The notes beneath the pieces were generated by a model, which was not told the origin of the DNA, searched no databases, and saw only the letters and a list, made by a program, of their open reading frames with translations. A program made the position numbers and the translations under genes. DNA of 64,000 bases. It comes from Candidatus Omnitrophota bacterium. Lineage in GTDB: Bacteria; Omnitrophota; Gorgyraeia; 2-01-FULL-45-10. Each line of letters begins with the position of its first letter. The stretch's first letter is position 1. Shown here piece after piece: positions 3,431-52,311 of the stretch. The stretch lies in contig JBAYMS010000005.1 of NCBI GenBank assembly GCA_041663425.1, positions 531 to 64,530 of the forward strand, read 5' to 3'.

Positions 3431-3479
3431 TTTTTATCGTTCCTTATTTTTTTCATTGGAATAAATCAGAACAAATTTG

Positions 3480-4007: not shown

Positions 4008-4052
4008 ACAGCAAGTTTATCACAAAACTAACTTTTTGCAAATTTTTCTGCT

Positions 4053-6771: not shown

Positions 6772-6793
6772 AACAGCTGCGCCGGATAAAAGA

Positions 6794-7396
6794 TTACTCC
6801 AGAGAATCTATCCGCTGCATTATCAGCTTCGTGGCCTCTTTGGCACCGGCCCATATCGGTTCGGTATCATATGATCCGTCGAGCAAGATGGGCGTACCTA
6901 TGGAAACGCCTATCTTAGCGCCAAATTTGACGCGGCACTTTCTGATATTTAAAGCTTCGTCAGTGCCTGTTATCTTTACCGGTAAAATTTTAGTTCCGGT
7001 CCTCAATGCCGCTAATGCCGCGCCAGGTTTGCCTTCTATAGGATGCCCGGTCTCATTCCTGCCCCCCTCGGGGAAAAATAGCACCATCCTGCCGTTTGCG
7101 ATCCTTCTGCATGCCTCCACTATCGCCATAGGCCCTGTAGCGGCAATACAATCCCCGACAAATGCCCTGGCAATAAATCTTAGGAATACATTGAGGCCGG
7201 TCATAAAAGCCATCTCCCGCGGAAATATTGTGGTTAAAAGATAGGGGTCTATGTGACCTATATGGCTGGACGCGATCACGCACGCACCTTCTTTTGGTAT
7301 GTTTGAAGCACCTTTTACAGTTATTTTAAAAAAAAATAACCTGAAGACCAGCCTTATCATGTTTTGATAAATTTTATAAAAAAATGGGCGTATCAT
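6794..7396 (-). CDS. Lysophospholipid acyltransferase (PlsC/AGPAT family)
   Basis: 200 aa. HX4D-type motif (SSHIGHID) and FPEGGR motif are characteristic of 1-acyl-glycerol-3-phosphate acyltransferase-like enzymes. Confidence 0.7.
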   Translation of the reverse strand: MIRPFFYKIYQNMIRLVFRLFFFKITVKGASNIPKEGACVIASSHIGHIDPYLLTTIFPREMAFMTGLNVFLRFIARAFVGDCIAATGPMAIVEACRRIANGRMVLFFPEGGRNETGHPIEGKPGAALAALRTGTKILPVKITGTDEALNIRKCRVKFGAKIGVSIGTPILLDGSYDTEPIWAGAKEATKLIMQRIDSLE

Positions 7397-7397
7397 A

Positions 7398-8609
7398 TCA
7401 GAAATTTATTGAATCAGAATAGACTTCATCCACGGTTATCATCTTAAGGCATTTATTATCACGGCATACGGAATTCCTGTGATTATACGCTGAGAAACAG
7501 GGGCTGCAGGCCAATTTTTTATACAGCACCTTTTTATTTTCCTTAAGCGGAGCGTAAAGGACCGGCGTCTCCGGGCCAAAAAGCACCACCATGTTAACAG
7601 CTGTAAGAGAAGCCAGGTTAGCGGCACCGCTGTCATGACTTATAAATAGCGAAGCAATACTGCACAATGCTATCATTTCCTTAACCGAGGTCCGGCCTAT
7701 CATATTTATAAAACGCTTATTGCCGGATAAATAATCTATGCCATCCGCGCCGTCTTCTGATTCTGCGCTTATGCCTGTAAAAACTACAAATGTGTTTTCG
7801 TCCTTAAGCATCCTGCCGGCAAGTTCGATATAATTTTCGACCGGCCACCTGCGCAGAAATAAAAACTCACCTATGCCGGGATTTAAAACTATTATGCGGT
7901 TATTTTTATTTATCGCACTGTTAATTTTTTTCAGCTTGTCCCATATACCTGTAATATCTTCCTGTGTTAATTTCATTAAGGGCACTGTTGTTTCAGTGCC
8001 ACCCAGCGCTGTTTTCAGGTAAGGCACTTCGTACGCGGTTTTGATGGACCGAACGAGCGCTAAAAAGTTCTTACTTATATGGCTATACGGATTATACATG
8101 ACATTATGCGTGTAGATATCCGCACGGCTAAGGCCTTCGAGGGTAAATTTATGAAACCCAACCTTTGTCTTCGCACCGCTGAAAAACGCCAATATGCTTG
8201 TGAACCTGGAGAACAGCTCCATGTCTATTACGGTATCTATCTTCTCCCGCCTTATCCTACGTAAACTTCTTATGGTATCAAAAAGCAGAATTAAAATATT
8301 ATCCGTTCGTATCGTTATAACATTTTCTTTAGGTATAACATCGAGAGTATAAACACTTTCGACATTATCTTTAAATATCCAGAAATAGAGCTGTGCATCC
8401 GGATAGCTTTCCCTGGCCTCCTTCATGGCCGAATAGGCCAGAATGGCTGCCCCCATTTCAGAAAGTTCTAAAAATATTATTTTTTTTGGTTCTGGGTTAA
8501 TTTTTACTCTGGGAGAGAAAAATCTTTGCATCCGGCTAAACAAAGATAACGGATAACATATCAACGGCCCTATCCAGCAATCCAGTGCAAAAGCAACGCA
8601 TGGCTTCAT
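7398..8609 (-). CDS. Glycosyltransferase family 9 (ADP-heptose:LPS heptosyltransferase-like)
   Basis: 403 aa. The N-terminal region resembles the RfaF/WaaC EL-SEMGAA-YSAMKEARESYPDAQLYF block. The C-terminal HDSGAANLAS motif resembles the conserved GNDSGPMHLA box of GT9 enzymes. Confidence 0.6.
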   Translation of the reverse strand: MKPCVAFALDCWIGPLICYPLSLFSRMQRFFSPRVKINPEPKKIIFLELSEMGAAILAYSAMKEARESYPDAQLYFWIFKDNVESVYTLDVIPKENVITIRTDNILILLFDTIRSLRRIRREKIDTVIDMELFSRFTSILAFFSGAKTKVGFHKFTLEGLSRADIYTHNVMYNPYSHISKNFLALVRSIKTAYEVPYLKTALGGTETTVPLMKLTQEDITGIWDKLKKINSAINKNNRIIVLNPGIGEFLFLRRWPVENYIELAGRMLKDENTFVVFTGISAESEDGADGIDYLSGNKRFINMIGRTSVKEMIALCSIASLFISHDSGAANLASLTAVNMVVLFGPETPVLYAPLKENKKVLYKKLACSPCFSAYNHRNSVCRDNKCLKMITVDEVYSDSINF

Positions 8610-10741
8610 CAGAAGCTTCCTTTAACAGACGCTATGCCATTTCGCGCTTTTTCATTGTTCGGATCCACATCCAGCATCTTCTGCCAGTATCTAAGAGCCT
8701 TCTCCTTCATACCCATCTTTAGATATATCACTGCGAGGTTGTTATATGCATCTAAAAATTTAGGGTCTGATTTTGCAGCTTTCTCAAATGAAGCTATAGC
8801 GTCATCGACGAGCCCTTTTTTATAATACGCATTGCCCAGGTTATAATAACCGCCTGCAAAATCAGGATTCGCCTCTACAGCCTTTTTAAGCTCATTTATA
8901 GCGTCATCATAACGGCCCATCTTTACATAAATATTTGAAAGATTGTTCCTGGCCTTATAATTAGACGGTTTTTCTTTCAAAAGATCTTTATAGGTGTTTA
9001 TAGCCGCGTCATAATCACCCTTAGCCATATATGTATTTGCGAGATTATACCAGGCATCCATGTAGTTTGCTTTTATTTGAAGAGCTTTTTTAAACTGCTT
9101 TATCGCATCATCATAACGGCCCATCTTGAAATAAATATTACCGAGATTATTATTGGCCTGGAGATGGAACGGCTGTTTATCCAGAAATATCCCATATTCT
9201 TTTATAGCATCTTCATAGCGGCCCATCTTGAGATAGGAATTAGCCACGTTAAAATGACTGGTCAAAACATCGGGGTTTAATTTTTCGGATTTCCTGGTCT
9301 CTTCAATAGCTTTATCATATAGCCCTTTTTCAAAATATATATTGCCGAGGCTTAAATGCGCATCCGCATAATCAGGGGCAATAGATATGGCTGTTGTGAA
9401 TTGCTCTTCTGCTTTATCGTAAAGTTTCAGATCCTGATACGCTGTGCCTAAACTGACATGAGAGCGCGCTGTAGCCGGGGGGCGCCTCACCCTTTCCTCC
9501 CAAAATACAACGGGATTCCTCCAATCCATGTTACGCGTTACAGTTCTCCAACCATAGAAAATAAAAATAACTGAAGCAGCGGCAATAGCTATTTGCTGGT
9601 ATTTTTTATTCGCGTAAATCCTCAAGATCACAGCGCTAAGCAGCATAGAAAATCCGGCGACGGCGGGATAGAGAAGTCTTTCGGCGACGGGCGTATACGG
9701 ATGCGCTATAGTAGGCCCGACGGAAAGGAATATCCATGCCATTGCAAATACAAAGATCCGGTCCTGCTTAAATTTACGGATAACAAACAGAATAAGCGCT
9801 GCAATAGCTATAAATGAAAATAAAGCCTGCGATTCCAGCATCGAATGCGACATACGAAAAACATATTCAGCAGAAAGCTGTATAGGGAACAATAGCAGCT
9901 TCAGGTAATGTAAGATGTATTGGCTTCCCATCATTACAAGATACCCGAGGTCTGTATTAAGACGTGTTTTAAATAGCACTGCAGGAGAGGCAAATTTAAC
10001 AAGGCTTATATACTCGTAAAAGATAGCGATTGCAACATATCCGGCGTATATAAAAATCGCATTTTTGATCGCATTGTTTAATTTGCTCTTATCCACGCCG
10101 CCTTTCCATGTACATACGTCTATAACTACCAATAACAACACTGCACCGACGGCAAGTTCTCTTGTAAATATAGCAAGAAAGCAGAATAATAAAGAACAGG
10201 CATAAAATACGGTTCTCTTTATGCCTTCAGAGGTTTTCACTTTCAGATAAAAAATGATCGCGGTGAAAAACAAAGCGCAGAAAATAGCGCTGCCCCTGAA
10301 CGCAGGGCTATTCACCACCTCAGTCTGGACGGGGTGGGCAATAAAAAACAAGCCGGATAATGCGGCAACTAAACGCGCCGGAAGCTTAGCGTCCAGCATC
10401 GGCGTAATAAGTAACACTAGAAAATAAAGCGCTATTCCGGCCAGCACATGGAAAAAGATATTCGTCAGATGATATCCGACGGGGTTAAATTTCCAGAAAT
10501 GGTAATCGATTATGAATGTAAGTGTAGTCAGGGGACGATAAGAAAATTCGCCGGAGCCGGCGTAATACTCTTTTGTAAAAAGATACTTTATATTACTGAG
10601 CTTTGTAAGGAATACGTTATTTTTTACTAGTAGGTCGTCATCGTAAACGAATTGGTTCTGTAATGAATTGGCATATATGGCAAATCCTATTACCACTATC
10701 AGGGCTATGGAGATAAAAGATATTTTAAAGCTGCTATTCAT
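8609..10741 (-). CDS. TMTC-like GT-C fold glycosyltransferase (multi-TM, DD motif) fused to C-terminal TPR repeats
   Basis: 710 aa. There are about 11-13 N-terminal TM helices with a first-loop FVYDDD motif and a YRPLT motif as in PMT/TMTC-type GT-C enzymes. The C-terminal ~300 aa is made of about 8 TPR units (repeated AxxxYxxAxxxxP / YNLGNxY patterns). Confidence 0.6.
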   Translation of the reverse strand: MNSSFKISFISIALIVVIGFAIYANSLQNQFVYDDDLLVKNNVFLTKLSNIKYLFTKEYYAGSGEFSYRPLTTLTFIIDYHFWKFNPVGYHLTNIFFHVLAGIALYFLVLLITPMLDAKLPARLVAALSGLFFIAHPVQTEVVNSPAFRGSAIFCALFFTAIIFYLKVKTSEGIKRTVFYACSLLFCFLAIFTRELAVGAVLLLVVIDVCTWKGGVDKSKLNNAIKNAIFIYAGYVAIAIFYEYISLVKFASPAVLFKTRLNTDLGYLVMMGSQYILHYLKLLLFPIQLSAEYVFRMSHSMLESQALFSFIAIAALILFVIRKFKQDRIFVFAMAWIFLSVGPTIAHPYTPVAERLLYPAVAGFSMLLSAVILRIYANKKYQQIAIAAASVIFIFYGWRTVTRNMDWRNPVVFWEERVRRPPATARSHVSLGTAYQDLKLYDKAEEQFTTAISIAPDYADAHLSLGNIYFEKGLYDKAIEETRKSEKLNPDVLTSHFNVANSYLKMGRYEDAIKEYGIFLDKQPFHLQANNNLGNIYFKMGRYDDAIKQFKKALQIKANYMDAWYNLANTYMAKGDYDAAINTYKDLLKEKPSNYKARNNLSNIYVKMGRYDDAINELKKAVEANPDFAGGYYNLGNAYYKKGLVDDAIASFEKAAKSDPKFLDAYNNLAVIYLKMGMKEKALRYWQKMLDVDPNNEKARNGIASVKGSF

Positions 10742-10750
10742 ATCCCCTCT

Positions 10751-11959
10751 TCAGGTTAATGCCTCGCTCAAGGCATCTGCTATTATTGTAGCTTCACGAT
10801 CTGTCATATCGTCATATAACGGCAATTGGATGGAAGATTCATAAACACCTTTAACCACAGGATATTCCTCTTCCAAGTTCAGATACAAAGCGCAGTTGTC
10901 GGTTATTTCGCCTTTTACGCCGGAGTCAATACCCCTTTTCACCAGCTTTCTGCGGATATCCTCTATTGCGCCGTTATAACTACTTAATCTTATCACAAAA
11001 AAATAGAATATTCTATCTCCCTGCACAGAGATATCCTGAAATGATATATTATCGCCAAGCCTTTTTATAAGACGATCCGCGGCATTGTTTCTTAGTTTAT
11101 TTTTATACTCAAGATCCCCCAGTTGTCTTAGCCCTAAAAAAGCCTGCAGATTGGTAAAACGCGATTTTTTAGCACGCGCTGATCTGCGCGTAGACAGATA
11201 AAATCTGCTTATGATGCCGGAAGTTTTTTTGCCAGCCAGGAATCTTATGAGGACAGGATATGCGGGTGAATTCATGAGGAGATCTTCTGCGTATGAAAAT
11301 AATATTTTGGTTAGAATGCCATAACTTTTATAGGGATATGATTCAAGGGCGGATTTGATATGTTTTATGATACTCTCATTATTGGTGGTTGCCATACCGC
11401 CGCCGAATGTGTTTATGCCTTTGATCGTTTCGAAACTAAAAAATGCGGCGTCGCCAATAGAACCTACATGTTTTCCGTCAATCGTTGCGCCTAAAGCATG
11501 CGCGCAATCCTCTATAACTGCCATGCCGTACTTTTTTGCAATGCTTGTTATCTTTTCCATATCACATGGGACTCCAAAAAGATGGGTCGCTATTATGACT
11601 CTGCTTTTAGGAGTAATGTGAGCGGATATCAGCTGCGGATCCATATTAAATGATTTTTTCTCTACATCGACCAGTTTGGGCACCAGCCCTTTGGCTATAA
11701 CAAGATCTACCAGATCCTTCAGTGTATATGCCGGCATTATAACTTCATCGCCTCGCTCAAGCTTCAGCGCGTCAAGAATAAGTGATAATGCATCACGCCC
11801 TGAACAGGTTGATACAGCAAACTTCGTGCCTACATATTCCGCAAATTTGTTTTCGAACAATGCTATATCCTGGCCTTTTGCCGTCTGGCCAGTAAATATC
11901 AGGCTGAATACATCTCTAAATTCACCCTTATAGTATCGCGGCTTTCGGCGTCTTATCAT
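10751..11959 (-). CDS. DegT/DnrJ/EryC1/StrS-family PLP-dependent sugar aminotransferase
   Basis: 402 aa. The FSFETIKGINTFGGGMATT block matches the conserved FSFHxxKxxxxGEGG Schiff-base lysine region of DegT-family enzymes. The N-terminal region has a fold-type I layout. Confidence 0.85.
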   Translation of the reverse strand: MIRRRKPRYYKGEFRDVFSLIFTGQTAKGQDIALFENKFAEYVGTKFAVSTCSGRDALSLILDALKLERGDEVIMPAYTLKDLVDLVIAKGLVPKLVDVEKKSFNMDPQLISAHITPKSRVIIATHLFGVPCDMEKITSIAKKYGMAVIEDCAHALGATIDGKHVGSIGDAAFFSFETIKGINTFGGGMATTNNESIIKHIKSALESYPYKSYGILTKILFSYAEDLLMNSPAYPVLIRFLAGKKTSGIISRFYLSTRRSARAKKSRFTNLQAFLGLRQLGDLEYKNKLRNNAADRLIKRLGDNISFQDISVQGDRIFYFFVIRLSSYNGAIEDIRRKLVKRGIDSGVKGEITDNCALYLNLEEEYPVVKGVYESSIQLPLYDDMTDREATIIADALSEALT

Positions 11960-13050
11960 ATTTTTAAACCTGTTATTTTTTGAAGCGGTATATTTAGACT
12001 AAAACGATCCATCCAGCAATCGCATCTTGCGCCAGACCTGAACGCACAGCGCAGATCCTGCATTTCAGCACTGTGCCACAGATCTATGAGATTTGTATCA
12101 TTCAGATTGCCTATAGGCACATTGGGCGACATGGTCAATTCATGGCATGGCAATAAATTGCCCGACACATCTGCACCTCCGAAGAACGTGCCGGCAAAAC
12201 ATAAAAATTTATCTTTCAGTTTTTCGGGATGGAATATAAATGACGGTATATTGCGGTGATAAACTGTATTCAGAATTTTATATTTTCTCAGTAAGCCCTC
12301 AAAGCACTTCCTGAATGCAGGCTCATCTTCTGCGCTGAACCTCATGTATTCGGGAACGTCATAAGACAGTTCTGTGTTTTTATAAATAGGCTTAAACGAT
12401 ATAGCATCAACTTTTTCTCTAAAATGGCCGGCAAAATCCTCCACAAAAAGATAATTCTGCTTATTGATAAGATATCGTGCCTCTATAAACACCGGCGATC
12501 TTGTAGAAAAATTGCGTATCGCTTTTATACCATTTTCTATTTTGTCAAACAATCCGTCCCGGCCTCTTATTTTATCAACGGTTTCCGCATCGGGGCCATC
12601 TATGCTTATAGTGATAAAATCCACCCCGCCCCTTATCATCGATTCCGCTTTTTCCTCCAGAAGAAAGCCGTTCGTCGAAACATTCACTATCATGCCCGAG
12701 GATTTGGCTTCCCGTATAACATCATCCAGGTCTTTGCATAATAACGGCTCTCCTCCGCATAAGCTCAGGAACCATACGCCGCTTTCAGCTATATTTTTTA
12801 TAATTTTTATTTTTTGTCTGAGGTCCGGCTCTTTTTTAATTTGCGCCGGCACCTGCCCGGCTTTCCAAAATCCGCAAAAAGGGCACCTGAGATTACAGCT
12901 TGCTGCTATATCCCATACAAAAAAAAGAGGGCCTCTACGCGGCGTCTTTTGCGTCATAGCTACAAGGTAGTTGTCTGTAAAAGTGAGGAGTAGTCTGGGG
13001 ATAGACTTGATATTCCTGCTTAAGGCATATCTCAGCTTGTTTTTATTCAA
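11956..13050 (-). CDS. Radical SAM enzyme with C-terminal SPASM/twitch-like Cys-rich domain
   Basis: 364 aa. It has CNLRCPFCGFW (CX3CX2C), a GGEPLL motif, and C-terminal cysteines (CFAGTFFGG...C...RCAFRSGARCDC). The start overlaps the DegT stop by 4 nt and its own stop overlaps the upstream flavoprotein gene. Confidence 0.85.
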   Translation of the reverse strand: MNKNKLRYALSRNIKSIPRLLLTFTDNYLVAMTQKTPRRGPLFFVWDIAASCNLRCPFCGFWKAGQVPAQIKKEPDLRQKIKIIKNIAESGVWFLSLCGGEPLLCKDLDDVIREAKSSGMIVNVSTNGFLLEEKAESMIRGGVDFITISIDGPDAETVDKIRGRDGLFDKIENGIKAIRNFSTRSPVFIEARYLINKQNYLFVEDFAGHFREKVDAISFKPIYKNTELSYDVPEYMRFSAEDEPAFRKCFEGLLRKYKILNTVYHRNIPSFIFHPEKLKDKFLCFAGTFFGGADVSGNLLPCHELTMSPNVPIGNLNDTNLIDLWHSAEMQDLRCAFRSGARCDCWMDRFSLNIPLQKITGLKI

Positions 13051-19325: not shown

Positions 19326-20123
19326 TTAAACTGCTCTCTTTACGCATTTTATTTTTCTCTTCAGAAATTTCTCGCCTATGCGGACGAACCGGTTTGGCTC
19401 GTCGCTGACAAAGAACCTGTGGTCTCCTGCTTTTTTCGAAGCATTCAGCAGACCGCTCGCATCAAGTATGTCCCTGGCCTCTTTTGCCACCTCGTTTGCA
19501 GAATCTACAAGAACAACTCCGGGTCCCATAACTTTTTTAAGCACATTTTTCAAAATAGGGTAATGAGTGCAGCCCATTATAAGAGTGTCGACACGTTTTC
19601 CTTTTAAAGGCTTCAGATAAATTTGCGTAACGGTCTTCGTAACGTCTTTATCATCCCAGCCCTCTTCCACCAGAGGAACAAACAACGGACAGGCCTGGGT
19701 AAACACAGAATATCGCGGACTTATCTTCTTTACCGCCTTCTCATAAGCCCCGGAAGAAACGGTAGCGTTAGTCCCTATAACACCTATACGATTATTACGC
19801 GTAACACTGACCGCCTGTCTTGCGCCGGGTCCTATAACACCTATCACCGGAACCCTGAAACACCTTTTCAAAAAATCGAGACTGAGCGAAGATGCGGTAT
19901 TGCATGCAACTATAACCAGCTTAACATTATGTTCCATGAGAAATTCAACATTCTCGACGGAAAACTTGGTAACCGTTTCTTTCGACTTAGTGCCATAAGG
20001 AACCCTTGCGGTATCTCCGAAATAGACCAGGTTTTCATTGGGTAGCATCTCCTGGATCTTGCCGACGACCGTAAGACCGCCAACACCGGAATCAAATATG
20101 CCTATAGGTCTCGAATCACTCAT
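19326..20123 (-). CDS. murI: Glutamate racemase
   Basis: 265 aa. It has IGIFDSGVGGLTV and VIVACNTAS catalytic Cys motifs. Confidence 0.9.
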   Translation of the reverse strand: MSDSRPIGIFDSGVGGLTVVGKIQEMLPNENLVYFGDTARVPYGTKSKETVTKFSVENVEFLMEHNVKLVIVACNTASSLSLDFLKRCFRVPVIGVIGPGARQAVSVTRNNRIGVIGTNATVSSGAYEKAVKKISPRYSVFTQACPLFVPLVEEGWDDKDVTKTVTQIYLKPLKGKRVDTLIMGCTHYPILKNVLKKVMGPGVVLVDSANEVAKEARDILDASGLLNASKKAGDHRFFVSDEPNRFVRIGEKFLKRKIKCVKRAV

Positions 20124-21250
20124 ATCCTTGTAAAACCCTCTGTCTTTTCGTATTCTCTTTTGTATCTCAGTATGCCCTGAGCTATAGACTCTGCCAGCCG
20201 GCCAAGAAAATCAGGATCTTTCAGTTTAAGCTCCTCGTATCTATTGCTTATATAACCGGCCTCTACAAGGACTGCCGGAATATTAGTATGCTTAAGAACA
20301 TAGAACCTCGCGCTCCTTATCCCCCTATTCCCTATAGCCAGACTATCATTTATAGAATCACAAATATAGCTGGCAAGCTCGGCGGATTCCAGCCTATTCT
20401 CTGTAAGTGTCATATCCCAGAGAGTTTTGTCAAGCGGCCGGGAATGCTGAGCCGATGCCGCCTCGTCCATCTTCAGCGAAGAGTTTTCAAATGCTTCGAG
20501 CGCACGGGCATTATCGTCTGTAGCGTTAGAAAGATAATAACATTCAAACCCCCTCATAAGCCTTGAACGTGAAGCATTTATATGTACGCTTACAAAAATA
20601 TCCGCACCGCTTTTGTTCGCTATCTCTGAGCGCCGGGGAAGAGGTATAAAAACATCGCTGTCTCTGGTCATAATGACTTTAATGCCCGCTTCTTCCAATA
20701 AGGATTTAATTTTTCTGGCCAACTGAAGAGTCAGGTTTTTTTCTTTAATATGAAGTCTTCTGCCTATAGCTCCGGGATCATTGCCGCCATGGCCCGGATC
20801 CAGGACTATCGTTTTTATTGCAAATCTTTTAGCCCCCTCTGCCGCAACGGGAGTTTTCACGACAGGACGGTAAACTACCATATCCCCCATATTATTTCTT
20901 ATAAACGAAATAGGGATAAACAGCTCCCCGCCTCTCATAGTGGCGGGTTTATCCATCTTTACAATATCTGCATTTAATAGCGCCCTGTCTCCCCCATCCC
21001 GCAGAATTATTTTGGTTGAGCCTTTGCGAATAAAAGCCGTCCTGGCAAAAGTATCATATTTATAATCAAAACCGTAAAAATCGCATATTTTCACGAGTGG
21101 TATATACTCGGAACCATTTAATATCCTTACATCCTTCTGCAAAGATGCATCAAGTTTAGAATACGATGCCCTGGTCGCGCATCCGGATAAAAATGCAATG
21201 GCACAACATATAATAATTATAGGGTAATATTTGTAATAATTTTTTTTCAT
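20120..21250 (-). CDS. N-acetylmuramoyl-L-alanine amidase (Amidase_3, AmiC-like) lipoprotein
   Basis: It has [16 protein letters not shown] and FVSVHINAS amidase_3 motifs. The start is set at the ATG at 21250 ([24 protein letters not shown] signal/lipobox). The longer ORF-track start at 21355 runs through the tRNA-Leu gene. Confidence 0.85.
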
Positions 21251-21268
21251 AATAGTATAAAGTATAAG

Positions 21269-21353
21269 TGGTGCGGAGAGGGGGATTTGAACCCCCAAGG
21301 CTTGCGCCACAGGCTTCTGAGACCTGCGTGTCTGCCAGTTCCACCATCTCCGC
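21269..21353 (-). tRNA. tRNA-Leu (anticodon CAG), long variable arm
   Basis: Reverse complement GCGGAGATGGTGGAACTGGCAGACACGCAGGTCTCAGAAGCCTGTGGCGCAAGCCTTGGGGGTTCAAATCCCCCTCTCCGCACCA (85 nt). The acceptor stem is GCGGAGA/TCTCCGC, the anticodon loop is CTCAGAA, the T loop is TTCAAAT, and CCA is encoded. Confidence 0.85.
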
Positions 21354-21440
21354 ATACCGCAATTTCACTCAACTCAAACAGCTTTTAGGTATTTTGTGTC
21401 CCGAGCAAGGCTATCGTTTATCTCCGGCCGTGCCGAGGGA

Positions 21441-21463
21441 CCAGTTCCACCATCTCCGCATAC
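21441..21463 (-). repeat. 23-bp duplicate of the tRNA-Leu 5' end (4 nt flank plus first 19 nt), 106 bp upstream of the intact gene
   Basis: ccagttccaccatctccgcatac occurs at 21335..21357 (part of the tRNA) and again at 21441..21463. The second copy does not continue into a complete tRNA. Confidence 0.7.
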
Positions 21464-21562
21464 ATTTAAACAAAATTCCGGCAATATTAAGCTTATTAGT
21501 ATACCTCAAAACCGCGGCGCTGGCAAGGTTGATTTCACGTCGATATTGTGCTATATTAAGTT

Positions 21563-22024
21563 TTGAAAATGGCAGATAACATTATAGCGACTAATAGACA
21601 CGCACGGTTTGAATACAACATACTCGAGAGCTTTGAGGCTGGTATAGCACTTACTGGTACAGAGGTCAAATCGCTGCGAACCGCCAAGGCAAGCCTGGCC
21701 AACGGCTTTGCCAGAGTCGAAGGCAATAATGCGGTTTTTCTGTATAATATGCACATAGCACCTTACGCATTCGGGAATATCGCAAACCCCGATCCGTTAA
21801 GGCCGAGAAAATTGCTTCTGCACAAGAGAGAGATAAAAAGACTTGCGGCGGATATCACGACTAAGAAATTAACATTGATACCGCTTAAAGCTTACTTTAA
21901 AAATGGCATAGTTAAAATTGAGCTTGGGCTGGCAAAAGGAAAAAAGCTTTACGATAAACGCGATGTTATCAAGAAGCGGGATTCTGACAGAGAGCTTAAA
22001 AGAATTTTGAGAAATAAAGCTTAA
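21563..22024 (+). CDS. smpB: SsrA-binding protein SmpB
   Basis: 153 aa. NRHARFEYNILE, GIALTGTEVKSLR and the C-terminal basic tail are SmpB hallmarks. It lies immediately upstream of the tmRNA. Confidence 0.9.
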   Translation: MKMADNIIATNRHARFEYNILESFEAGIALTGTEVKSLRTAKASLANGFARVEGNNAVFLYNMHIAPYAFGNIANPDPLRPRKLLLHKREIKRLAADITTKKLTLIPLKAYFKNGIVKIELGLAKGKKLYDKRDVIKKRDSDRELKRILRNKA

Positions 22025-22046
22025 TATTGTTCTTTAATATATCGTC

Positions 22047-22463
22047 GGGGGTGAAAGGTTTCGACCCAGATGAGCAAGGCATAAGCAGCATGTAGAGGTT
22101 GCTAGGAGGCCTCTTAAAACACCTGGCAAAAAATCAAATGCTGAAAACTTCACAGTTCCAGCTACGGTAAACGAACTCCTGAACACCATGCAAGTGGTGC
22201 CGGGACCAGTTCTACCGGTCGCGTTACCTTTATAAGGTAACCCGTCAACCAGTTCTTTTCCTGCGGGGGCTGGATTGACGACACACAGCAGGATGGCCCG
22301 GAAAGTTTAGCCTTTGGCGATCCGGGCGAGACATCTAAAAGGATACCCTTTTGAAATTCCGCCTATTGAAGTTCATGAGGGGAAATTAAAGATTAGGATA
22401 AACATGTAGCGGCTTTTGTTTTGACGTTCGGGGACGCGGGTTCAATTCCCGCCACCTCCACCA
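22047..22463 (+). ncRNA. ssrA: tmRNA (ssrA), one-piece
   Basis: The 5' GGGGGTGAAAGGTTTCGAC (acceptor arm plus D-like region) pairs with the 3' ...GGGACGCGGGTTCAATTCCCGCCACCTCCACCA (T arm, acceptor 3' strand, CCA). The A-rich stretch GGCAAAAAATCAAATGCTG precedes the tag-reading region. Confidence 0.8.
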
Positions 22464-22617: not shown

Positions 22618-22651
22618 TTAAGGAAAGGAGAAATATTTCTCCTTTCCTTAA
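22618..22651. terminator. Perfect 34-nt palindrome (putative bidirectional intrinsic terminator) between ssrA and the minus-strand deacetylase gene
   Basis: ttaaggaaaggagaaatatttctcctttccttaa is perfectly self-complementary (a 15-bp stem), followed by AAAATCTTTTTCTCTTT on the plus strand and by a T-rich tract on the minus strand. It lies 51 bp downstream of the stop of the 22703..23557 gene. Confidence 0.5.
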
Positions 22652-22702: not shown

Positions 22703-23557
22703 TTATTTTTCCTGCAGTTTGGCAAGTTCACTGAAAGTAATGAGTTTGATACCGTTATCGGCTATGGCTTTCTTAATGCGGCGGCTTGTTAATGCGGCAA
22801 GGTCAGTTTCGCAATTTCGGTGAAATACGCACCTATCCAAAACTTCAGCGCTTATAAATCCGGGATGTGCTACAAGCTCTGTAACACCGTCGGGTAGTTC
22901 GGTCAGCATCTGCATTAATATATCTTCTCTGATGTTTCCCGAATCGAATAATCCGAGAAAATTATCAGTGTGAAGGACGGATGCCTTATTAAGCGCACGT
23001 ATCATATTTTTATCAAAATATCCCAGGATAATTTTTTTAAATAATTTGTTCGCGTTATACGGATAAGCAAATCTGTCTCTATGCAGATATCTTATAGCGG
23101 GGATGCTATATTCTTTTGCTAGTTGTATGAAGATATCTAATATTCCGGGCAGCATGTGGATATGCTGATGACTACTAAGGCTTGTTATGGGCAGACCGGA
23201 TTCTTTCAGCCTTTCGACCTGGCTCTTCAATTCTATATATATATGCGTTGAGCTTATTTTGCCTAAAAGAAAAGGTAAAAGAAAACCCGCATAGCCTTTA
23301 TGAAATCTTCCGTCCCTGGTGACAAGGCTTGCTACCTCGGAAGGATCGCTCACGGGGGCAGTTTCAGTAAGAGCAAGATGCGCGCTTATCTCTTTTAATT
23401 TAGCGACCCTAAGAAGCGCCATAGCATCGTAAAAGGCCGCGCCGGAAGAGAGAACATTAACGGCTGTGGTTATCCCCGCCTCACAGCTTTTCATGATGCC
23501 GCGGTTTATACTATCGGACAGCCCCAGGTCATCAGCGCTAACTATAAGATACTTCAT
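22703..23557 (-). CDS. YdjC/ChbG/HpnK-family carbohydrate deacetylase (NaxD/LgmC-like)
   Basis: 284 aa. The N-terminal LIVSADDLGLSDSINRGI and later HLAL/HQHIH motifs are typical of the YdjC-like deacetylase superfamily. It is co-transcribed with the GT2 and GT-C genes (4-nt overlaps). Confidence 0.7.
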   Translation of the reverse strand: MKYLIVSADDLGLSDSINRGIMKSCEAGITTAVNVLSSGAAFYDAMALLRVAKLKEISAHLALTETAPVSDPSEVASLVTRDGRFHKGYAGFLLPFLLGKISSTHIYIELKSQVERLKESGLPITSLSSHQHIHMLPGILDIFIQLAKEYSIPAIRYLHRDRFAYPYNANKLFKKIILGYFDKNMIRALNKASVLHTDNFLGLFDSGNIREDILMQMLTELPDGVTELVAHPGFISAEVLDRCVFHRNCETDLAALTSRRIKKAIADNGIKLITFSELAKLQEK

Positions 23558-24246
23558 TTCGAAAACCTATACTTCAGCATATCCCAGAATGTCCTCGCGA
23601 CTACGCTCATTCTCGATATCGTTGATTCTCCTTTTGTGCGCAGTTCAAATATTAGCCCATACTGTTTTATAGCAAACCCTCTCCTCGCCGCCTCGGCAAA
23701 TATTTCGACATCTATGAAAGGACTTCTTGATTTCAGATCGAGCCCTTCTATAACTTTTCTCTTATATATTTTAAGACCGGAATTTATATCCCTTATTTTA
23801 AGACCGAAAAGAATCCGAACCAGGAAATTGTAACCTTTCGACATTATAATACGCTTAAGACTAGCGTCTTTTAAGACCAGGCTGTATGCCGTAACGACAT
23901 CCGCGCCATTAAGCATATCGAGAGCGCCTTTTATATCCTTTTCTCTGGCAGGGAGATCTGAATCAGTATATATCACAACTCCCTTGGAAGAATTTTTCAG
24001 GCCTTCTTTCAAAGCACCGCCGAATTTTGTATTAACTTTAAGCCGTACGGATTTTATATGCTTATCAGCTGAGGCTAATTTATCAACAATGTCACCGCTT
24101 CCGTCGGTAGAAGCATCGTCAACTATCACTATTTCGTAGTCATCCGCTATCTCCGACGCCAGAGCTGTCGCGCGCCTTAAGGTCTCCTCAATATTCTCAG
24201 CCTCATTGAACATCGGAAATACGAAAGATATGCTATGTTTTATCAT
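23554..24246 (-). CDS. GT2 polyprenyl-phosphate sugar transferase (DPM1/ArnC/LgmA-like)
   Basis: 230 aa. The motifs SFVFPMFNEAENI, YEIVIVDDASTDGS and YTDSDL are GT-A fold DXD-type GT2 signatures of dolichol/undecaprenyl-phosphate glycosyl synthases. Confidence 0.8.
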   Translation of the reverse strand: MIKHSISFVFPMFNEAENIEETLRRATALASEIADDYEIVIVDDASTDGSGDIVDKLASADKHIKSVRLKVNTKFGGALKEGLKNSSKGVVIYTDSDLPAREKDIKGALDMLNGADVVTAYSLVLKDASLKRIIMSKGYNFLVRILFGLKIRDINSGLKIYKRKVIEGLDLKSRSPFIDVEIFAEAARRGFAIKQYGLIFELRTKGESTISRMSVVARTFWDMLKYRFSK

Positions 24247-25913
24247 TTAACAAATTCTCTTTTCAGGATATAGACGCCATCGTCCGGTTCGACATTGGTT
24301 ACTATCGACCTTTTCCCTACGGTATATAACAGGTAGGTCGGCTTAACATATTCATTATTTATCGCCGGATCATACAGCCCTCTGTGGTTTTTATCCTTTA
24401 TTACAGCCCAGACCCGTTTATCCGAATTTAAAAAATTTACCATAATGTGGTGTTTATCCAGGTCTACCGGAAATTTATCCGCGTAAAACGCAAGCCCGGG
24501 AAGATAGTTGCTCTGTGAACCGAGCGCCTCGCCCTCTTTGATCAGCAGGCGCAATTTGCCGCTCACTTCTTTGCTCGATTCGTAGCGCTCAACATCCGGC
24601 AATACGTAAAAATCAAGCGGCAGTATCAGTGCTGCCAAAGACACTACAATTAGACAAAAAGACGCGAAATGTTTTTTCTTTAAAAATAAAACTGCCGAGG
24701 CAATAAATCCAAAGACTAACACAAGACTCGAGAAGACAACTCCTTTTAATATTTCGGGCATGTCGATCTTTACAAATATAGACAAACCTACAGCACCCGC
24801 TATGATCGCTATTGCCAATAAATAATAAGATACCTTCACCCCTGCAGCGACGGATCCGGATATTTTGCCTGAATTTAAAAATTCATTCCATAGCGCGCCG
24901 ACTATAAGCGCGAGCGATATGAAAGTCGGGAAAACATACGTCGGTAATTTTGTGCGGGACGCTGAGAAAAACAGGAAAATCACAAAGAACCAAACCAGCG
25001 CAAAAACAGAGCCTTTTGCTTCTACCCGCCCATCGCCCCTGGCCCCCTGTCTATTTTTGAATATATACCAGAAACCAAATGGTAAAAATATGCTCCATGG
25101 GAAAAATCCTGCCATAATAACCGGGATATTATAATAAAATTGAGAGCCGATCTTGTGCTCCGACTGCATAAACCTCGTAACATTATGGAATCCGAAGAAA
25201 GCATCGATAAATTCCATACCGTGAAGCTTATAAGCCGTAAAATACCATGGCCCGGCAATGACCACGAATATCAGAACGCACCATCCAAATGGTATCTTCT
25301 TTAAACTGCCGAGATCTCCAACTATAGCCAGAAATATAATAAATGCCAGGACGGGCAGCGCAATTGCTATTGGCCCTTTCGCTAGGACCGCGAAAGCAAA
25401 AGCGGCGGATGATAATATGTAAAAGGATTTCTTATTTTTCAGATACCCATAGAAGAAAAACAGGACGCCAAGCAGCATAAATGCCGTCAATGTCATGTCG
25501 GTAATGCATGCTCTGGAAAGCACTATATATTCTACGTTTGTGGCCAATATCACCGCTGATAAAAAACCTGCTTTTTTACCGAAGAGCACAGACCCAAGAA
25601 AATACATAGCTATAACACCTATCAGGCCAAACAATGCTGATGGCAGCCTCGCAGACATTTCATTCACCCCGAATATTTTATATGAAATTTCTATCAGCCA
25701 GTATATCAGGATAGGTTTTTCAAACTGCGGTTTGCCGTAAAGATACGGAGTCGTCCAGTCACCCTTATTGACCATCTCTTTTGCCGTCTGGGCATAGAAA
25801 GTCTCATCGGGGTCGGTAAGCGCCATATCCCCTAATTTAAATAAAAACAGATATGCGCATAATATTACTAATAACGTTACGGCAAGGTATGGTTTTTTGA
25901 GGATTTTATCCAT
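24243..25913 (-). CDS. ArnT/PMT-like GT-C membrane glycosyltransferase (GT83/GT39 family)
   Basis: 556 aa with about 12-13 TM helices. The first periplasmic loop has DPDETFYAQTAKEM (the DE motif of ArnT/PMT enzymes). The N-terminal layout is typical of lipid A / protein glycosyl transferases that use polyprenyl-P-sugar donors. Confidence 0.7.
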   Translation of the reverse strand: MDKILKKPYLAVTLLVILCAYLFLFKLGDMALTDPDETFYAQTAKEMVNKGDWTTPYLYGKPQFEKPILIYWLIEISYKIFGVNEMSARLPSALFGLIGVIAMYFLGSVLFGKKAGFLSAVILATNVEYIVLSRACITDMTLTAFMLLGVLFFFYGYLKNKKSFYILSSAAFAFAVLAKGPIAIALPVLAFIIFLAIVGDLGSLKKIPFGWCVLIFVVIAGPWYFTAYKLHGMEFIDAFFGFHNVTRFMQSEHKIGSQFYYNIPVIMAGFFPWSIFLPFGFWYIFKNRQGARGDGRVEAKGSVFALVWFFVIFLFFSASRTKLPTYVFPTFISLALIVGALWNEFLNSGKISGSVAAGVKVSYYLLAIAIIAGAVGLSIFVKIDMPEILKGVVFSSLVLVFGFIASAVLFLKKKHFASFCLIVVSLAALILPLDFYVLPDVERYESSKEVSGKLRLLIKEGEALGSQSNYLPGLAFYADKFPVDLDKHHIMVNFLNSDKRVWAVIKDKNHRGLYDPAINNEYVKPTYLLYTVGKRSIVTNVEPDDGVYILKREFVK

Positions 25914-36959: not shown

Positions 36960-38042
36960 TTATTTCTTCAGGAAGGAAAGACTGTTACGGAAAATTATAT
37001 CGCTCAGGTCCATGGTATTGATGCGGGTTTTTATACTTGAGTCTGCGGAAGTGGCAGTTATGATATCTTTGTCTTTCGCCCATGGTAAATTATCAACGGT
37101 CAGTCCGAGGAAAGATATTTTTTTAAGGACATCATAAATTATAGGTGTGAACAAGCGGACATTGCTTCCTGAAAAAATTATGTCGTCAAGGCCTCCCATG
37201 ACCGATATTCCTTCCCCTATATACTTCATTATCTGCGCGCGATAAATATCGAATGCCAGATCGACCTTTGCGTCCTTGCCGCGAAGCTTAAGCATCTCGT
37301 TTAATCCGATATTATAACCGGTCAGTCCAACAAACCCACTCTCATTCTTCAGCATTTCATCTATTTTATATATAGAAAAATTATGGACGTTCATAAGATA
37401 AAAGACTATTCCGGGGTCCATATCCCCGCACGATGTTCTGGACATAACCCCTTCGAGCGGCGTATACCCCAGGCTGACGGACAGGGGTTTCCGGTTGTGA
37501 ACAGCACACACGGTAGTCTGCTTATCAAATACTATAGAAACGCCTTTACTGCTGACGGAAAGCATATCAGCATTGGCGGAATGGAATATGCCGTGAAAAC
37601 CCCATTTTTTTATTTTGTTGTCTTCTGAATACTTAAATGGCATAGCATAATATTTCTCTTCGTCGGGAAGGCTCAGGAAAAATGATGTTTCAAAAAATGC
37701 TATCAAGGGAATATCTTTAAATACTGCGCGGAAATTTTTCAGCATATGAGATATCGGCGGCACATAGAAAGGAAACAGGTCTGTAAGTTTTTCAAAACGC
37801 GTAAAAAACCTTGAATCTATAATTGCCGGACCGGCAAAATAATCGCCGCCGAACAATATCCTGAAAGAGACAGCCCTTATCCTGCTCCTGCCCGCAATGT
37901 CACGGATATATTTTACAAGCGCCGCATCGCTGCGCACCTCTTCCATGTCTTTAACATGATCTGAGGCAGAGATGCTGCCATGCACTTCTTTAAAGGAACG
38001 GATCTTTATCTGCTTTAAATCGCAATCTATTACCAGGATCAT
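36960..38042 (-). CDS. Divergent acetate/propionate kinase-family paralog (possibly non-canonical or inactive)
   Basis: 360 aa. It retains the acetokinase C-terminal signature (LGYTPLEGVMSRTSCGDMDPGIVFYLM) and WGFHGIFH. It lacks the N-terminal NCGSSS phosphate-binding motif (it has IDCDLKQ) and the LHLGNG motif. Confidence 0.55.
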   Translation of the reverse strand: MILVIDCDLKQIKIRSFKEVHGSISASDHVKDMEEVRSDAALVKYIRDIAGRSRIRAVSFRILFGGDYFAGPAIIDSRFFTRFEKLTDLFPFYVPPISHMLKNFRAVFKDIPLIAFFETSFFLSLPDEEKYYAMPFKYSEDNKIKKWGFHGIFHSANADMLSVSSKGVSIVFDKQTTVCAVHNRKPLSVSLGYTPLEGVMSRTSCGDMDPGIVFYLMNVHNFSIYKIDEMLKNESGFVGLTGYNIGLNEMLKLRGKDAKVDLAFDIYRAQIMKYIGEGISVMGGLDDIIFSGSNVRLFTPIIYDVLKKISFLGLTVDNLPWAKDKDIITATSADSSIKTRINTMDLSDIIFRNSLSFLKK

Positions 38043-39262
38043 ATTCTTGCCGACTCCTTATAAGCTTCCCGCGCTATCATAATCTCTTCATCCGTAGGGA
38101 TCACCAGGATTTTGGTTTCAGAAGCAGGAGACGATATCTCATATATACCGTCTTTATACTGCGTATTCCTTTTCTCATCGATGTCCGGCCCTAAGAATCG
38201 CATATTCCTGCAAATGCTGCGGCGAAGAAGGGATGAACCCACCCCCAGCGAATCCGTAAATATCAGAATATCCGCTTTTTTAAGTATCAGAGTATAAAAC
38301 CCTATATACGCCCTCACCCTGCGCACATACATATCAAATGTAACCTTGGCCTGCTTATCTTTATCTATACCGCCAATGACATCTCTCAGGTCGGATGAAG
38401 AGCTAAACATCCCCAGGATCCCGCTCTTATTGTTCAATATACTTTCAGCTTCTTCCGATGAAAAACTTTCTTTAAACATTATGTAAAATACCGCTCCCGG
38501 ATCTATGTCGCCGCAGCGCGTATTCATCATAAGGCCTTCCAGGGGCGTAAATCCCATAGAGCTATTTATAGACTTTCCGTAATCTATAGCACAAACACTT
38601 GATCCGCCAGTGCCCAGATGACAACTTATTATCTTCTGCTGTGTCCGGTCCTTATTTAGAAACTTGCACGCCTCCTCCATAACATACCTGTGAGATATTC
38701 CATGAAAACCTATTTTTTTTATTCCATATTTTTTTGCAACCTTTTGCGGCATCGCATAGGTAGCAAATTCCGGCGGGATGGTCTTATGAAACGCCGTATC
38801 AAAAACTACGTACTGACTTATCCTTGCGTATTCACTATGACAAAATTCAATAAGCCCATAGGATATCGGATTGTGTATTGCCGCAAGCGGCAGCGTCTCT
38901 TTAAGCTTGTTCAGAACAGTCCTGTCAACTTTTACGGATTTAGTAAAAAACGTGCCGGGATGAACATATCTGTGGGCAAAAGCATCAAATCGGATATCTT
39001 TATTTTTTTTCGCATCACAAGCTATCATCTCAAGAACTTTTTTAAGCGCGGATGAATGGTCCGGCAAGGATGCCTCAACGATCCTTTTTTTGCCCATAAC
39101 ATAATGAGTGATAAGGGACGGTCCTTTGGTTTTAATACCGACTCTCTCAGCTTCACCGCGGACAAGCTCCGCCCCGCCGGGCATCCTCAGGATCTTATAT
39201 TTTAAAGATGAGCTCCCGCAATTAAGCACAAGAATATTTGCGACGGGACAATCTTTATATTT
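38039..39262 (-). CDS. ackA: Acetate kinase
   Basis: It has ILVLNCGSSSLKY, AHRYVHPG, FDTAFH, IGFHGISH, CHLGTGGS and MGFTPLEGLMMNTRCGDIDPG, the full set of acetokinase motifs. The start is placed at the MKYKDCPVANILVLNCG methionine. Confidence 0.85.
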   Translation of the reverse strand, partial: KYKDCPVANILVLNCGSSSLKYKILRMPGGAELVRGEAERVGIKTKGPSLITHYVMGKKRIVEASLPDHSSALKKVLEMIACDAKKNKDIRFDAFAHRYVHPGTFFTKSVKVDRTVLNKLKETLPLAAIHNPISYGLIEFCHSEYARISQYVVFDTAFHKTIPPEFATYAMPQKVAKKYGIKKIGFHGISHRYVMEEACKFLNKDRTQQKIISCHLGTGGSSVCAIDYGKSINSSMGFTPLEGLMMNTRCGDIDPGAVFYIMFKESFSSEEAESILNNKSGILGMFSSSSDLRDVIGGIDKDKQAKVTFDMYVRRVRAYIGFYTLILKKADILIFTDSLGVGSSLLRRSICRNMRFLGPDIDEKRNTQYKDGIYEISSPASETKILVIPTDEEIMIAREAYKESARI

Positions 39263-40472
39263 CATCCGAGCTCCAGCCAAAAGTAGGCATACCTATATTC
39301 CTTTGGACAATCAGCGCCTGTCCATAAGACGCTCTTTCGATCCGGTCGGTGCCAAGCAAATCCGGCTCAGTATCGCCTGCGTCTTCCAGTCCGGCGCCAA
39401 ATCCTATAGTTGGTATTTTAAGTTTTGCGTAAGTGTATGAACCTTCCGTGATCAGCTTCTTCCAATACCCAAATTCGGACTTAAAGCCATTTTCCTTCAG
39501 GCACTTAAGCGACTCCAGGGCAAAAGGTTCATGGCTCTCCATAGACCATGGCTTAGATTCTTTCTCTGACAGAAGCTCCATACCCGTATAGGTTTTAACC
39601 CTTTCCCGGGCGAGGAGAGTATTGACGGTAACATCTGCCTGAGTCTTATAAACACTCTTGGCTATAGTTTTGGCTTTATCCAGAACAAAGTCCCTGCTCT
39701 CCTCCGGAATGAACACCCTGTCAACAACTACCCTGAATTCATTTACCTCATCCTGCGGATGGTATCCGCTGTAACGCACATCTTTTATCCTAAGGCCGGA
39801 ACGGCCCAGATTCAGATCGCTCGGCAATTCTTTCGACACTTTCTCAAGTTCACTTATAAGAGGGAACATCGTTCCGAGCATATTCATCCCGCGGTTTTCA
39901 AGAAAACTCTCATTCAGCCTTCCCCTCACCACTATCTCGTATTCCATCCTCCCCTTGTGGCCGAGGTTAACATTAAATCCTGTAGGCTCACAAAGGATAA
40001 CGCCTTTGATTTTCTTTATCTGATTCTTAAGAAAATCGTCAAAAAGATATTTAACGCCGGAATCACAGCTTTCATGCCTCGGCACGCAGCATACTATCAG
40101 GTCGCCTGTCAACGGCAGCATCGAATTTTTTATCAATGCTCCGGCATAAACGCTCGAAACAATACCTGCTTTAAATCTTGCCATGCCGTTGTCATCAAGG
40201 CCTTCCAGTTTTTGCTGATTCTTCGTCATGGCGTCAATGTGCGACACCATCACGACGGAAGCCTTGTTACCGTAACCTTTTATGATACCTATCAGGTTGC
40301 CTGCCTTATCTTTAGTAACTTTATCGAACGCCAGCTCTTTCATCTCGGCGGAGACAATATCAGCAAACTCGCCCATGCTCGTATTGTCAACCCTGATGCC
40401 GGATATCTTCTTTTTAAATTTATCCATTGGCTTTTTAAGGCCTTTTGCTTTCTGCTTCATCAACTCTTTCAC
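39255..40472 (-). CDS. M20-family metallopeptidase / deacylase (ArgE/DapE-like)
   Basis: 405 aa. The metal-ligand pattern is SHIDAM ... GLDDNG ... RHESCDSG ... CEPTG, consistent with the H-x-D / D / E-E / E / H pattern of the M20 family. Confidence 0.55.
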   Translation of the reverse strand: MKELMKQKAKGLKKPMDKFKKKISGIRVDNTSMGEFADIVSAEMKELAFDKVTKDKAGNLIGIIKGYGNKASVVMVSHIDAMTKNQQKLEGLDDNGMARFKAGIVSSVYAGALIKNSMLPLTGDLIVCCVPRHESCDSGVKYLFDDFLKNQIKKIKGVILCEPTGFNVNLGHKGRMEYEIVVRGRLNESFLENRGMNMLGTMFPLISELEKVSKELPSDLNLGRSGLRIKDVRYSGYHPQDEVNEFRVVVDRVFIPEESRDFVLDKAKTIAKSVYKTQADVTVNTLLARERVKTYTGMELLSEKESKPWSMESHEPFALESLKCLKENGFKSEFGYWKKLITEGSYTYAKLKIPTIGFGAGLEDAGDTEPDLLGTDRIERASYGQALIVQRNIGMPTFGWSSDEI

Positions 40473-50705: not shown

Positions 50706-50716
50706 ATATTTTTTGG

Positions 50717-52306: not shown

Positions 52307-52311
52307 AATGA

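Follow-up and report, generated by a model that had tools for sequence, protein, structure and literature searches.

What does an Omnitrophota bacterium do with three overlapping genes for an ArnT-like GT-C glycosyltransferase, a GT2 glycosyltransferase and a YdjC-family de-N-acetylase, and where in the envelope would their product end up? We addressed this question for a 64,000-nucleotide stretch of Candidatus Omnitrophota contig JBAYMS010000005.1 (the window), in which the trio lies next to ssrA, the gene for transfer-messenger RNA (tmRNA). An original prediction made from the sequence had likened the trio to the Bordetella and Francisella genes that add a free hexosamine to lipid A by way of a carrier lipid, and had suspected accessory or acquired DNA. 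Our analysis points to an operon of the Omnitrophota core genome that would decorate the envelope with a free-amino hexosamine through a polyprenyl-phosphate carrier, with lipopolysaccharide (LPS) as the probable acceptor; to this reading, taken whole, we give about an even chance.

The same three minus-strand open reading frames (ORFs) were recovered at the positions predicted, overlapping by 4 nt at both junctions (Table 1), and Pfam matches bore out the three family assignments. The public gene call places the GT2 start 11 codons later, giving a protein of 219 amino acids (aa). Judged by alignment, the 230-aa overlapping start is the correct one, because GT2 residues 5-12 (SISFVFPMFNE) align with the conserved first strand of ArnC; the GT2 proteins of relatives are also called at 230 aa. 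With overlaps at both junctions and a gene order that is kept in relatives, the three genes form a genuine cluster.

A YdjC profile scan of 185,579 species genomes gave 462 confirmed relatives, of which the best 80 loci were classified. The order GT-C, GT2, YdjC recurs in 13 of these (from Omnitrophota, metagenome-assembled genomes (MAGs) labelled Planctomycetia and one 8.2-Mb genome) and in four metagenome loci besides, 17 in all. Identities among the syntenic relatives fall from 75% to 41-45% for GT-C and from 72% to 31% for YdjC; three same-order Omnitrophota relatives have GT-C identities of 65%, 58% and 43%. Because the same order recurs in such diverged relatives, the arrangement is not a product of chance. 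About 25 of the 80 loci belong to Negativicutes (with Pelosinus, Sporomusa, Phascolarctobacterium and Propionispora among the genera) and have YdjC followed by an ArnT-like GT-C, the two being usually separated by genes for a COG0392 flippase-like protein and a GalE-like epimerase, while nine loci from Acidobacteriota have YdjC followed by GT2 and no GT-C within 5 kb. An ArnT-like GT-C thus stands within 5 kb of YdjC in about 38 of the 80 loci, across several phyla, and this recurrent coupling of a de-N-acetylase with an ArnT-fold transferase is, at the level of gene linkage, the strongest comparative support for a carrier-lipid pathway. Bordetella, Francisella and Acinetobacter were absent from the best 80 loci.

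One group of loci and one single locus merit separate mention. The Negativicutes group (L023-L095; for example L057, positions 5001-9336, annotated in Phascolarctobacterium faecium) appears to be an uncharacterised candidate hexosamine-modification cluster of diderm Firmicutes. Locus L020 (positions 2563-5876, from a MAG labelled Syntrophaceae) has a GT2 of 63% and a YdjC of 44% identity, and carries in the GT-C slot a 553-aa multi-transmembrane protein with a WRDE motif after its first helix, no Pfam match and no detectable similarity to the GT-C of the window.

The GT-C protein has ~13 transmembrane helices and a C-terminal periplasmic domain of ~110 aa. Its best NCBIfam match is the ArnT equivalog (3.6e-53, residues 12-430), and it is 29% identical to Escherichia coli ArnT over 330 residues. 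In a sequence search of the PDB at E ≤ 10, the only meaningful match was CmArnT (5ezm/5f15; 1e-37); the sole other match, glutaredoxin-like NrdH (E 1.8), was taken as chance, and no PMT, PglB, AglB or STT3 chain was among the matches. An AlphaFold model built from 41 orthologues (predicted local distance difference test, 87.9; predicted template modelling score, 0.88) was aligned by Foldseek with ArnT (5f15/5ezm) over its whole length, C-terminal domain included, at a template modelling (TM) score of 0.78-0.80 (E 3e-21), against 0.40-0.55 for oligosaccharyltransferases (OSTs) and ALG enzymes and 0.31-0.48 for the protein O-mannosyltransferases (PMTs) Pmt1/2/4. Kinship with PMTs or OSTs had been named beforehand as the finding that would speak against an ArnT-like enzyme, and we rejected both identities: ArnT is the sole meaningful PDB match in sequence, and its TM score compares with 0.55 at most for the others. 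The likeness to ArnT holds at the level of superfamily and fold. The Pfam PMT and PMT_2 matches reflect the breadth of those models.

Residues D36, E37, Y40, E65, K66, D139, K179, R247 and Y326 of GT-C are invariant in 119 orthologues, and their ArnT counterparts are D55, E56, Y59, E84, K85, D158, K203, R270 and Y345. In ArnT, the phosphate of undecaprenyl phosphate (Und-P) is bound by E84, K85, R270 and Y345, and catalysis involves D55 with the D158/K203 pair (PMC8306577; PMC5377068).

The GT2 protein has ArnC, an archaeal dolichyl-phosphate hexose transferase, AglJ and PpgS as its best NCBIfam matches, all below their equivalog cutoffs (76 bits against 529 for ArnC; 35 bits for the PpgS model), and gave no match to HpnI in that search. 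Its PDB matches are ArnC (5.7e-17), Pyrococcus dolichyl-phosphate mannose synthase (1e-12) and GtrB (1e-7). The alignment with E. coli ArnC (27% identity) covers ArnC residues 10-235 and stops before the membrane helices; unlike ArnC, with its C-terminal membrane helices, the protein has no transmembrane helix or hydrophobic segment, and its architecture resembles the short PpgS/DPM1 type. We propose that it is a polyprenyl-phosphate N-acetylhexosamine (HexNAc) synthase working at the cytoplasmic face of the membrane.

The YdjC protein has neither signal peptide nor transmembrane segment and is predicted to be cytoplasmic. It matches YdjC structures in the PDB. All 120 orthologues share residues D9, D10, H60, E109, Q113, H130, H132, H134, R156, E227 and H231, among them the Asp-Asp, His and HxHxH core common to HpnK and ChbG. 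The protein is about equidistant from these two enzymes (26-30% identity); in NCBIfam, HpnK (TIGR03473) scores best, with 166 bits against a cutoff of 232.6, and ChbG reaches 131 bits against 227. We rejected an assignment as HpnK, the hopanoid glucosamine (GlcN) deacetylase, on that score and on the lack of an hpnI/hpnJ-type neighbour; for comparison, a true hpnI-hpnK pair is found in locus L014 and a celF-chbG context in L016. An insertion of ~25 aa, partly hydrophobic, marks the clade and is absent from ChbG, which acts on a soluble substrate; it would fit a lipid-linked substrate. We propose that the enzyme converts polyprenyl-phosphate HexNAc to polyprenyl-phosphate hexosamine (HexN). A tblastn search of plasmid records with YdjC found only ChbG, HpnK and unrelated YdjC genes, and the matches on the chromids of Cupriavidus CH34 and Azospirillum had no GT-C or GT2 nearby.

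From homology, conserved residues and gene linkage, we infer a pathway of four steps. The membrane-peripheral GT2 would transfer HexNAc from UDP-HexNAc to Und-P at the cytoplasmic face, the sugar being probably N-acetylglucosamine because no 4-epimerase gene is linked. YdjC would then deacetylate the product in the cytoplasm to Und-P-HexN, as NaxD and LgmC do, an unlinked flippase would bring the lipid to the periplasmic leaflet, and the ArnT-like GT-C would hand HexN over to a periplasmic acceptor. This acceptor is most likely lipid A or the LPS inner core, modified at a phosphate or a sugar, which would lower the negative charge of the surface. The carrier logic of the original prediction, from Und-P-HexNAc through Und-P-HexN to periplasmic transfer, is well supported by the protein families, the intact active sites and the gene linkage. 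The PIG-L gene that follows a GT-C relative outside the clade, and the grouping of deacetylase-linked GT-Cs in a rough tree (both described below), also count in favour of this pathway. Precedents for hexosamine on lipid A are NaxD/FlmF2/FlmK and LgmA-D (PMC11279074; PMC2233673; PMC11401268), and HexN on a lipid A phosphate has a signature of +161 Da (PMC9431647; PMC11401268). Since the operon is found phylum-wide in a housekeeping neighbourhood, we take the modification to be probably constitutive and not a form of resistance that is switched on by induction.

Lipid A or the inner core is in our view the most probable acceptor, on three grounds: where a system with YdjC, GT2 and an ArnT-like GT-C has been characterised, its target is in each case lipid A; the named lineages with the YdjC-GT-C linkage that are recognised as diderm, Omnitrophota and Negativicutes, are ones in which LPS is expected, several further loci being unclassified MAGs; and LPS-core genes lie in the window. 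These same points, together with the superposition of the GT-C fold on ArnT down to the C-terminal domain, tell against the strongest competing account, in which the donor pathway is unchanged but the sugar ends up on another periplasmic polymer, a glycolipid or a protein. We consider that account a real possibility, though the less probable one.

Evidence for such an acceptor, and against the reading that we prefer, comes from GT-C itself. Its score with the ArnT equivalog model is 181 bits, far short of the cutoff of 567, and it has no match to Pfam Arnt_C. ArnT homologues carry the motifs RYA and YFEKP (PMC5377068), and the Arg of RYA (R58), the ion-pair partner of D55, has been credited with orienting the phosphate of lipid A (PMC8306577; PMC5377068); in all 119 orthologues of GT-C, F39 replaces R58 and Q63 replaces Y82, giving FYA and QFEKP. 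To GT-C, 150 uncharacterised COG1807 representatives score above 212 bits, against 125 bits for E. coli ArnT, and in a rough neighbour-joining tree, drawn without support values, E. coli ArnT and the representatives with canonical motifs form one cluster with the Omnitrophota clade outside it. Further from GT-C, the cluster contains no flippase gene of the LgmD or ArnEF type and the 64-kb window no lpx genes, the synthesis of lipid A being itself a deduction, and mycobacteria use the same carrier logic, with a short GT2 that, like that of the window, lacks transmembrane helices, for an acceptor other than lipid A (PpgS/Rv3632/Rv3779; PMC9671496). Three of these points, the loss of that Arg, the place of GT-C beyond the canonical ArnT group and the mycobacterial precedent, are why we name lipid A as a probable acceptor and no more.

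GT-C was not accepted as ArnT sensu stricto, given the sub-cutoff score, the FYA/QFEKP motifs, the lack of an Arnt_C match and the lack of an arn operon context, no arnA, arnB, arnD, arnE or arnF gene being found near the trio. By comparison, the canonical-motif representative P0155 does match Arnt_C, and it is accompanied by a 334-aa GT2 and a small membrane protein of EamA-like type. An exhaustive family search (COG1807; 33,916 representatives at E ≤ 0.001) placed the Omnitrophota clade as a handful of representatives at 43-55% identity, with environmental proteins at ~35% as the next relatives. Across this family, the position equivalent to R58 is highly variable, being Val in the YdjC-linked GT-Cs of Negativicutes; this variability leaves room for acceptors other than lipid A, and with so much variation the residue found there does not tell clearly whether lipid A is the acceptor.

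A Sphingomonas plasmid offers a further hint of a non-lipid-A acceptor. Locus L012 (positions 3344-6801, Sphingomonas parapaucimobilis) has a GT87 gene, of GT-C fold, divergent from a GT-A and YdjC pair. Sphingomonas is known for making glycosphingolipids in place of LPS, and the locus would be a case of this gene logic in which the acceptor is probably not lipid A.

A related reading, which we put forward tentatively and think rather unlikely to hold in full, is that the GT-Cs with FYA/QFEKP are an uncharacterised ArnT-fold subfamily, recurrently coupled to de-N-acetylases, that transfers a free-amino hexosamine to something other than a phosphate of lipid A. Its partner may be YdjC in Omnitrophota and Negativicutes and a PIG-L enzyme in a sister lineage, and conceivable acceptors include a sugar of the core, a different glycolipid, peptidoglycan and proteins of the surface. 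In the same tree, the Omnitrophota clade groups with a sequence whose next gene encodes a PIG-L de-N-acetylase, and other YdjC-linked GT-Cs, those of Negativicutes included, fall in the same neighbourhood. Locus L007 (positions 2224-5189) encodes an FYA-motif GT-C of 38% identity, the closest relative outside the clade with that motif among those whose context was examined (a few other non-clade representatives score higher). The gene that follows overlaps it, and its 438-aa product contains a PIG-L (GlcNAc-PI de-N-acetylase) domain; PIG-L in the place of YdjC looks like a non-homologous swap of deacetylases.

That GT2 and YdjC build a membrane aminoglycolipid directly, as HpnI/HpnK, GpgSD and HexSD do, with GT-C having no part in it, we consider improbable. 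HpnK is indeed the top NCBIfam match of YdjC, operons of a GlcN-lipid synthase and deacetylase, with or without a flippase, are known (PMC12713373; PMC10128005; hpnI-hpnK in L014), and the Acidobacteriota loci described above have YdjC and GT2 with no GT-C close by. Against this, the HpnK score lies below its cutoff and GT2 lacks an HpnI match, resembling polyprenyl-phosphate sugar synthases and not GT4, GT28 or HpnI-type enzymes. The 4-nt overlap joins GT2 to GT-C, the order is kept with a homologous GT-C in all 17 Omnitrophota-type loci (the protein in the L020 slot being non-homologous), and a GT-C needs a polyprenyl-phosphate sugar donor, which GT2 would supply. Direct synthesis is unlikely because GT2 is of the polyprenyl-phosphate type and its gene is translationally coupled to that of GT-C.

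It is very improbable that YdjC is a ChbG-like catabolic deacetylase of soluble chito-oligosaccharides whose place beside glycosyltransferases means nothing: the two share a Pfam family and 30% identity, yet the ChbG score falls well short of its cutoff, no chb, phosphotransferase-system or glycosidase genes lie nearby, the linkage to GT-C is kept across phyla and the clade has the ~25-aa insertion that ChbG lacks.

The suspicion that the trio is horizontally acquired accessory DNA at an ssrA integration hotspot has its adjacency to ssrA in its favour and is otherwise scarcely credible, given that G+C content and skew are uniform over 15-33 kb, that no integrase is found among the annotated neighbouring genes (as the original prediction had itself remarked), that the 3' end of ssrA occurs once in the window with no duplicated attachment site, that GT-C and YdjC orthologues share the same long contigs, and that the trio is syntenic with ssrA, smpB and tRNA-Leu in most Omnitrophota-type loci checked, down to ~31% YdjC identity. 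A tRNA-Leu(CAG) follows the trio in most trio-type loci checked, and so does tmRNA where the fetched contig is long enough. On a comparison of orientation in the window and in L001, L003, L017, L022, L034 and L052, the tRNA-Leu(CAG)/smpB/tmRNA block faces opposite ways in different Omnitrophota lineages: the end nearer to YdjC is that of tRNA-Leu in L001 and that of tmRNA in the window, L003 and L017. Synteny, flat composition, the single ssrA 3' end and the lack of an integrase rule out recent acquisition at ssrA, and on this comparative evidence we regard the operon as an ancient core feature of Omnitrophota.

The position of the trio beside ssrA, as predicted, was itself confirmed (Table 1). 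The trio reads toward ssrA, the two being convergent, and smpB lies just upstream of tmRNA. A hairpin with runs of T and A on both sides stands in the 239-bp gap between them and is likely to be a bidirectional terminator for both. At the other end of the operon, the terminator scan found no terminator in the short spacer that separates GT-C from cbiO, and for that reason co-transcription of the trio with cbiMNQO is possible. The gene upstream of GT-C varies among relatives (cbiO in L001, bioY in L003), so the link to the cbi genes is not a conserved one.

Table 1. Features of the locus and of the rest of the window, in window coordinates.
Feature	Position	Strand	Basis
ArnT-like GT-C glycosyltransferase, 556 aa	24243-25913	minus	ORF list; Pfam PMT_2/PMT
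GT2 glycosyltransferase, 230 aa	23554-24246	minus	Pfam Glycos_transf_2, 3e-23
YdjC-family de-N-acetylase, 284 aa	22703-23557	minus	Pfam YdjC, 1.3e-54, full length
GT-C/GT2 overlap, 4 nt	24243-24246		
GT2/YdjC overlap, 4 nt	23554-23557		
Spacer of 35 nt, cbiO stop codon to GT-C start codon	25914-25948	minus	
Hairpin, perfect 15-bp palindrome with T/A runs on both sides	22618-22651		terminator scan; sequence
tmRNA (ssrA)	22047-22463	plus	179 bits
tRNA-Leu(CAG)/smpB/tmRNA block	21269-22463		
tRNA-Leu	21269-21353		
Amidase ORF	20120-21355	minus	
GT9 heptosyltransferase-like gene	7398-8609		profile annotation
710-aa tetratricopeptide-repeat protein	8609-10741	minus	
DegT aminotransferase	10751-11959		
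Radical SAM/SPASM gene	11956-13050		
GH3-family protein	1772-3430	minus	
Tandem acetate-kinase-family genes	36960-39280	minus	
Two GH57 genes and DUF4912 protein	49068-53142	minus	

The minus strand carries almost all genes around the locus. Upstream of the trio on that strand are cbiMNQO, an OprB-family porin, hldD, nikR and a znuABC-like transporter, and past ssrA and smpB come tRNA-Leu, the amidase, murI and queDCEF. The hldD product (ADP-heptose 6-epimerase; 392 bits against an equivalog cutoff of 274.6), the GT9 heptosyltransferase-like protein and the OprB porin are the LPS-core and outer-membrane markers of the window, and by these genes the host would be a diderm with heptose-type LPS-core genes. 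The stretch at 53-62 kb, annotated in the hunt for lipid A genes, encodes central metabolism.

A second candidate GT-C is encoded elsewhere in the window. The 710-aa protein has ~11 N-terminal transmembrane helices, a YDDD motif after the first of these and C-terminal tetratricopeptide repeats (TPRs), an architecture of the TMTC/PMT_2-TPR kind, and its neighbours are the GT9, DegT aminotransferase and radical SAM/SPASM genes; similar 617-aa TPR proteins stand directly after YdjC in L003 and L020. The tmRNA tag called by ARAGORN is unusually long (AENFTVPATVNELLNTMQVVPGPVLPVALPL), and its resume codon may be mis-set; among relatives, some tmRNAs share this long tag and others are given a short one (AMQVVPDPILPVALPL in L018). 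The amidase ORF, with an Amidase_3 and a Cu_amine_oxidN1 domain, starts inside tRNA-Leu as called, and its real start must lie further downstream, the relatives being called at 374-376 aa. The tandem acetate-kinase-family genes encode 360 aa and 413 aa, and the match of the first covers only part of the profile. One of the two GH57 genes has a branching-enzyme C-terminal domain, and they adjoin a DUF4912 protein with a glucodextranase-like domain, a cluster that probably serves alpha-glucan metabolism. The full-length GH3-family protein, an auxin-amido synthetase-like acyl-acid amido synthetase, is of a kind uncommon in bacteria.

The nearest counterparts among characterised pathways are LgmABC(D) of Bordetella and FlmF2-NaxD-FlmK of Francisella, with the same three families, clustered genes and the same inferred order of reactions on Und-P, a likeness that holds at the level of families and gene sets as described and not of direct sequence comparison. 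The Omnitrophota operon differs from them in its 230-aa GT2 without transmembrane helices, in encoding no small membrane protein like LgmD, in the motifs of GT-C (FYA/QFEKP in place of RYA/YFEKP), and in being phylum-wide with no adjacent two-component regulator. The Arn pathway of Enterobacteria and Burkholderia (ArnC, ArnD, ArnE/F and ArnT) follows the same logic of GT2 loading, deacylation and periplasmic transfer by a GT-C, and the GT-C of the window shares the fold of ArnT (TM 0.8) and its catalytic and Und-P-binding residues; the trio, however, comes without arnA and arnB for 4-amino-4-deoxy-L-arabinose synthesis and without ArnE/F, and its deacylase is a YdjC and not a CE4-type ArnD. 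The mycobacterial and corynebacterial PpgS-Rv3632-Rv3779 system, which places galactosamine on arabinogalactan, is alike in its short GT2 without transmembrane helices, its deacetylation step and its delivery by a GT-C; there, however, the GT-C is of another family, the deacetylase is unidentified and the envelope is monoderm-derived, and the similarity of the window GT2 to PpgS is weak (35 bits). HpnI/HpnK, GpgSDF and HexSDF likewise transfer HexNAc and then remove the acetyl group, which leaves a membrane lipid with GlcN as its cationic head group; unlike the trio, they rely on GT4, GT28 or HpnI-type enzymes that put the sugar straight onto the final lipid, and a GT-C is not required.

The chemistry is already known from Bordetella, Francisella and Acinetobacter, and the trio extends that theme without adding a new mechanism. 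What it would change is the picture of its hosts. Omnitrophota are abundant, uncultivated and mostly very small bacteria, possibly host-dependent; if an LPS-directed hexosamine pathway operates in them as we propose, they have a built-in cationic hexosamine decoration of the outer envelope, with expected consequences for the charge of the surface, for how well the cells withstand cationic peptides and metals, and for contact between cells. If the FYA/QFEKP transferases are instead a subfamily with another acceptor, the operon would be a constitutive, phylum-defining feature of the Omnitrophota envelope. As far as literature searches showed, no such modification pathway has been assigned in Negativicutes, and the linkage of YdjC with ArnT-like GT-Cs there and in other lineages provides candidate genes for hexosamine-modified LPS outside the Proteobacteria.

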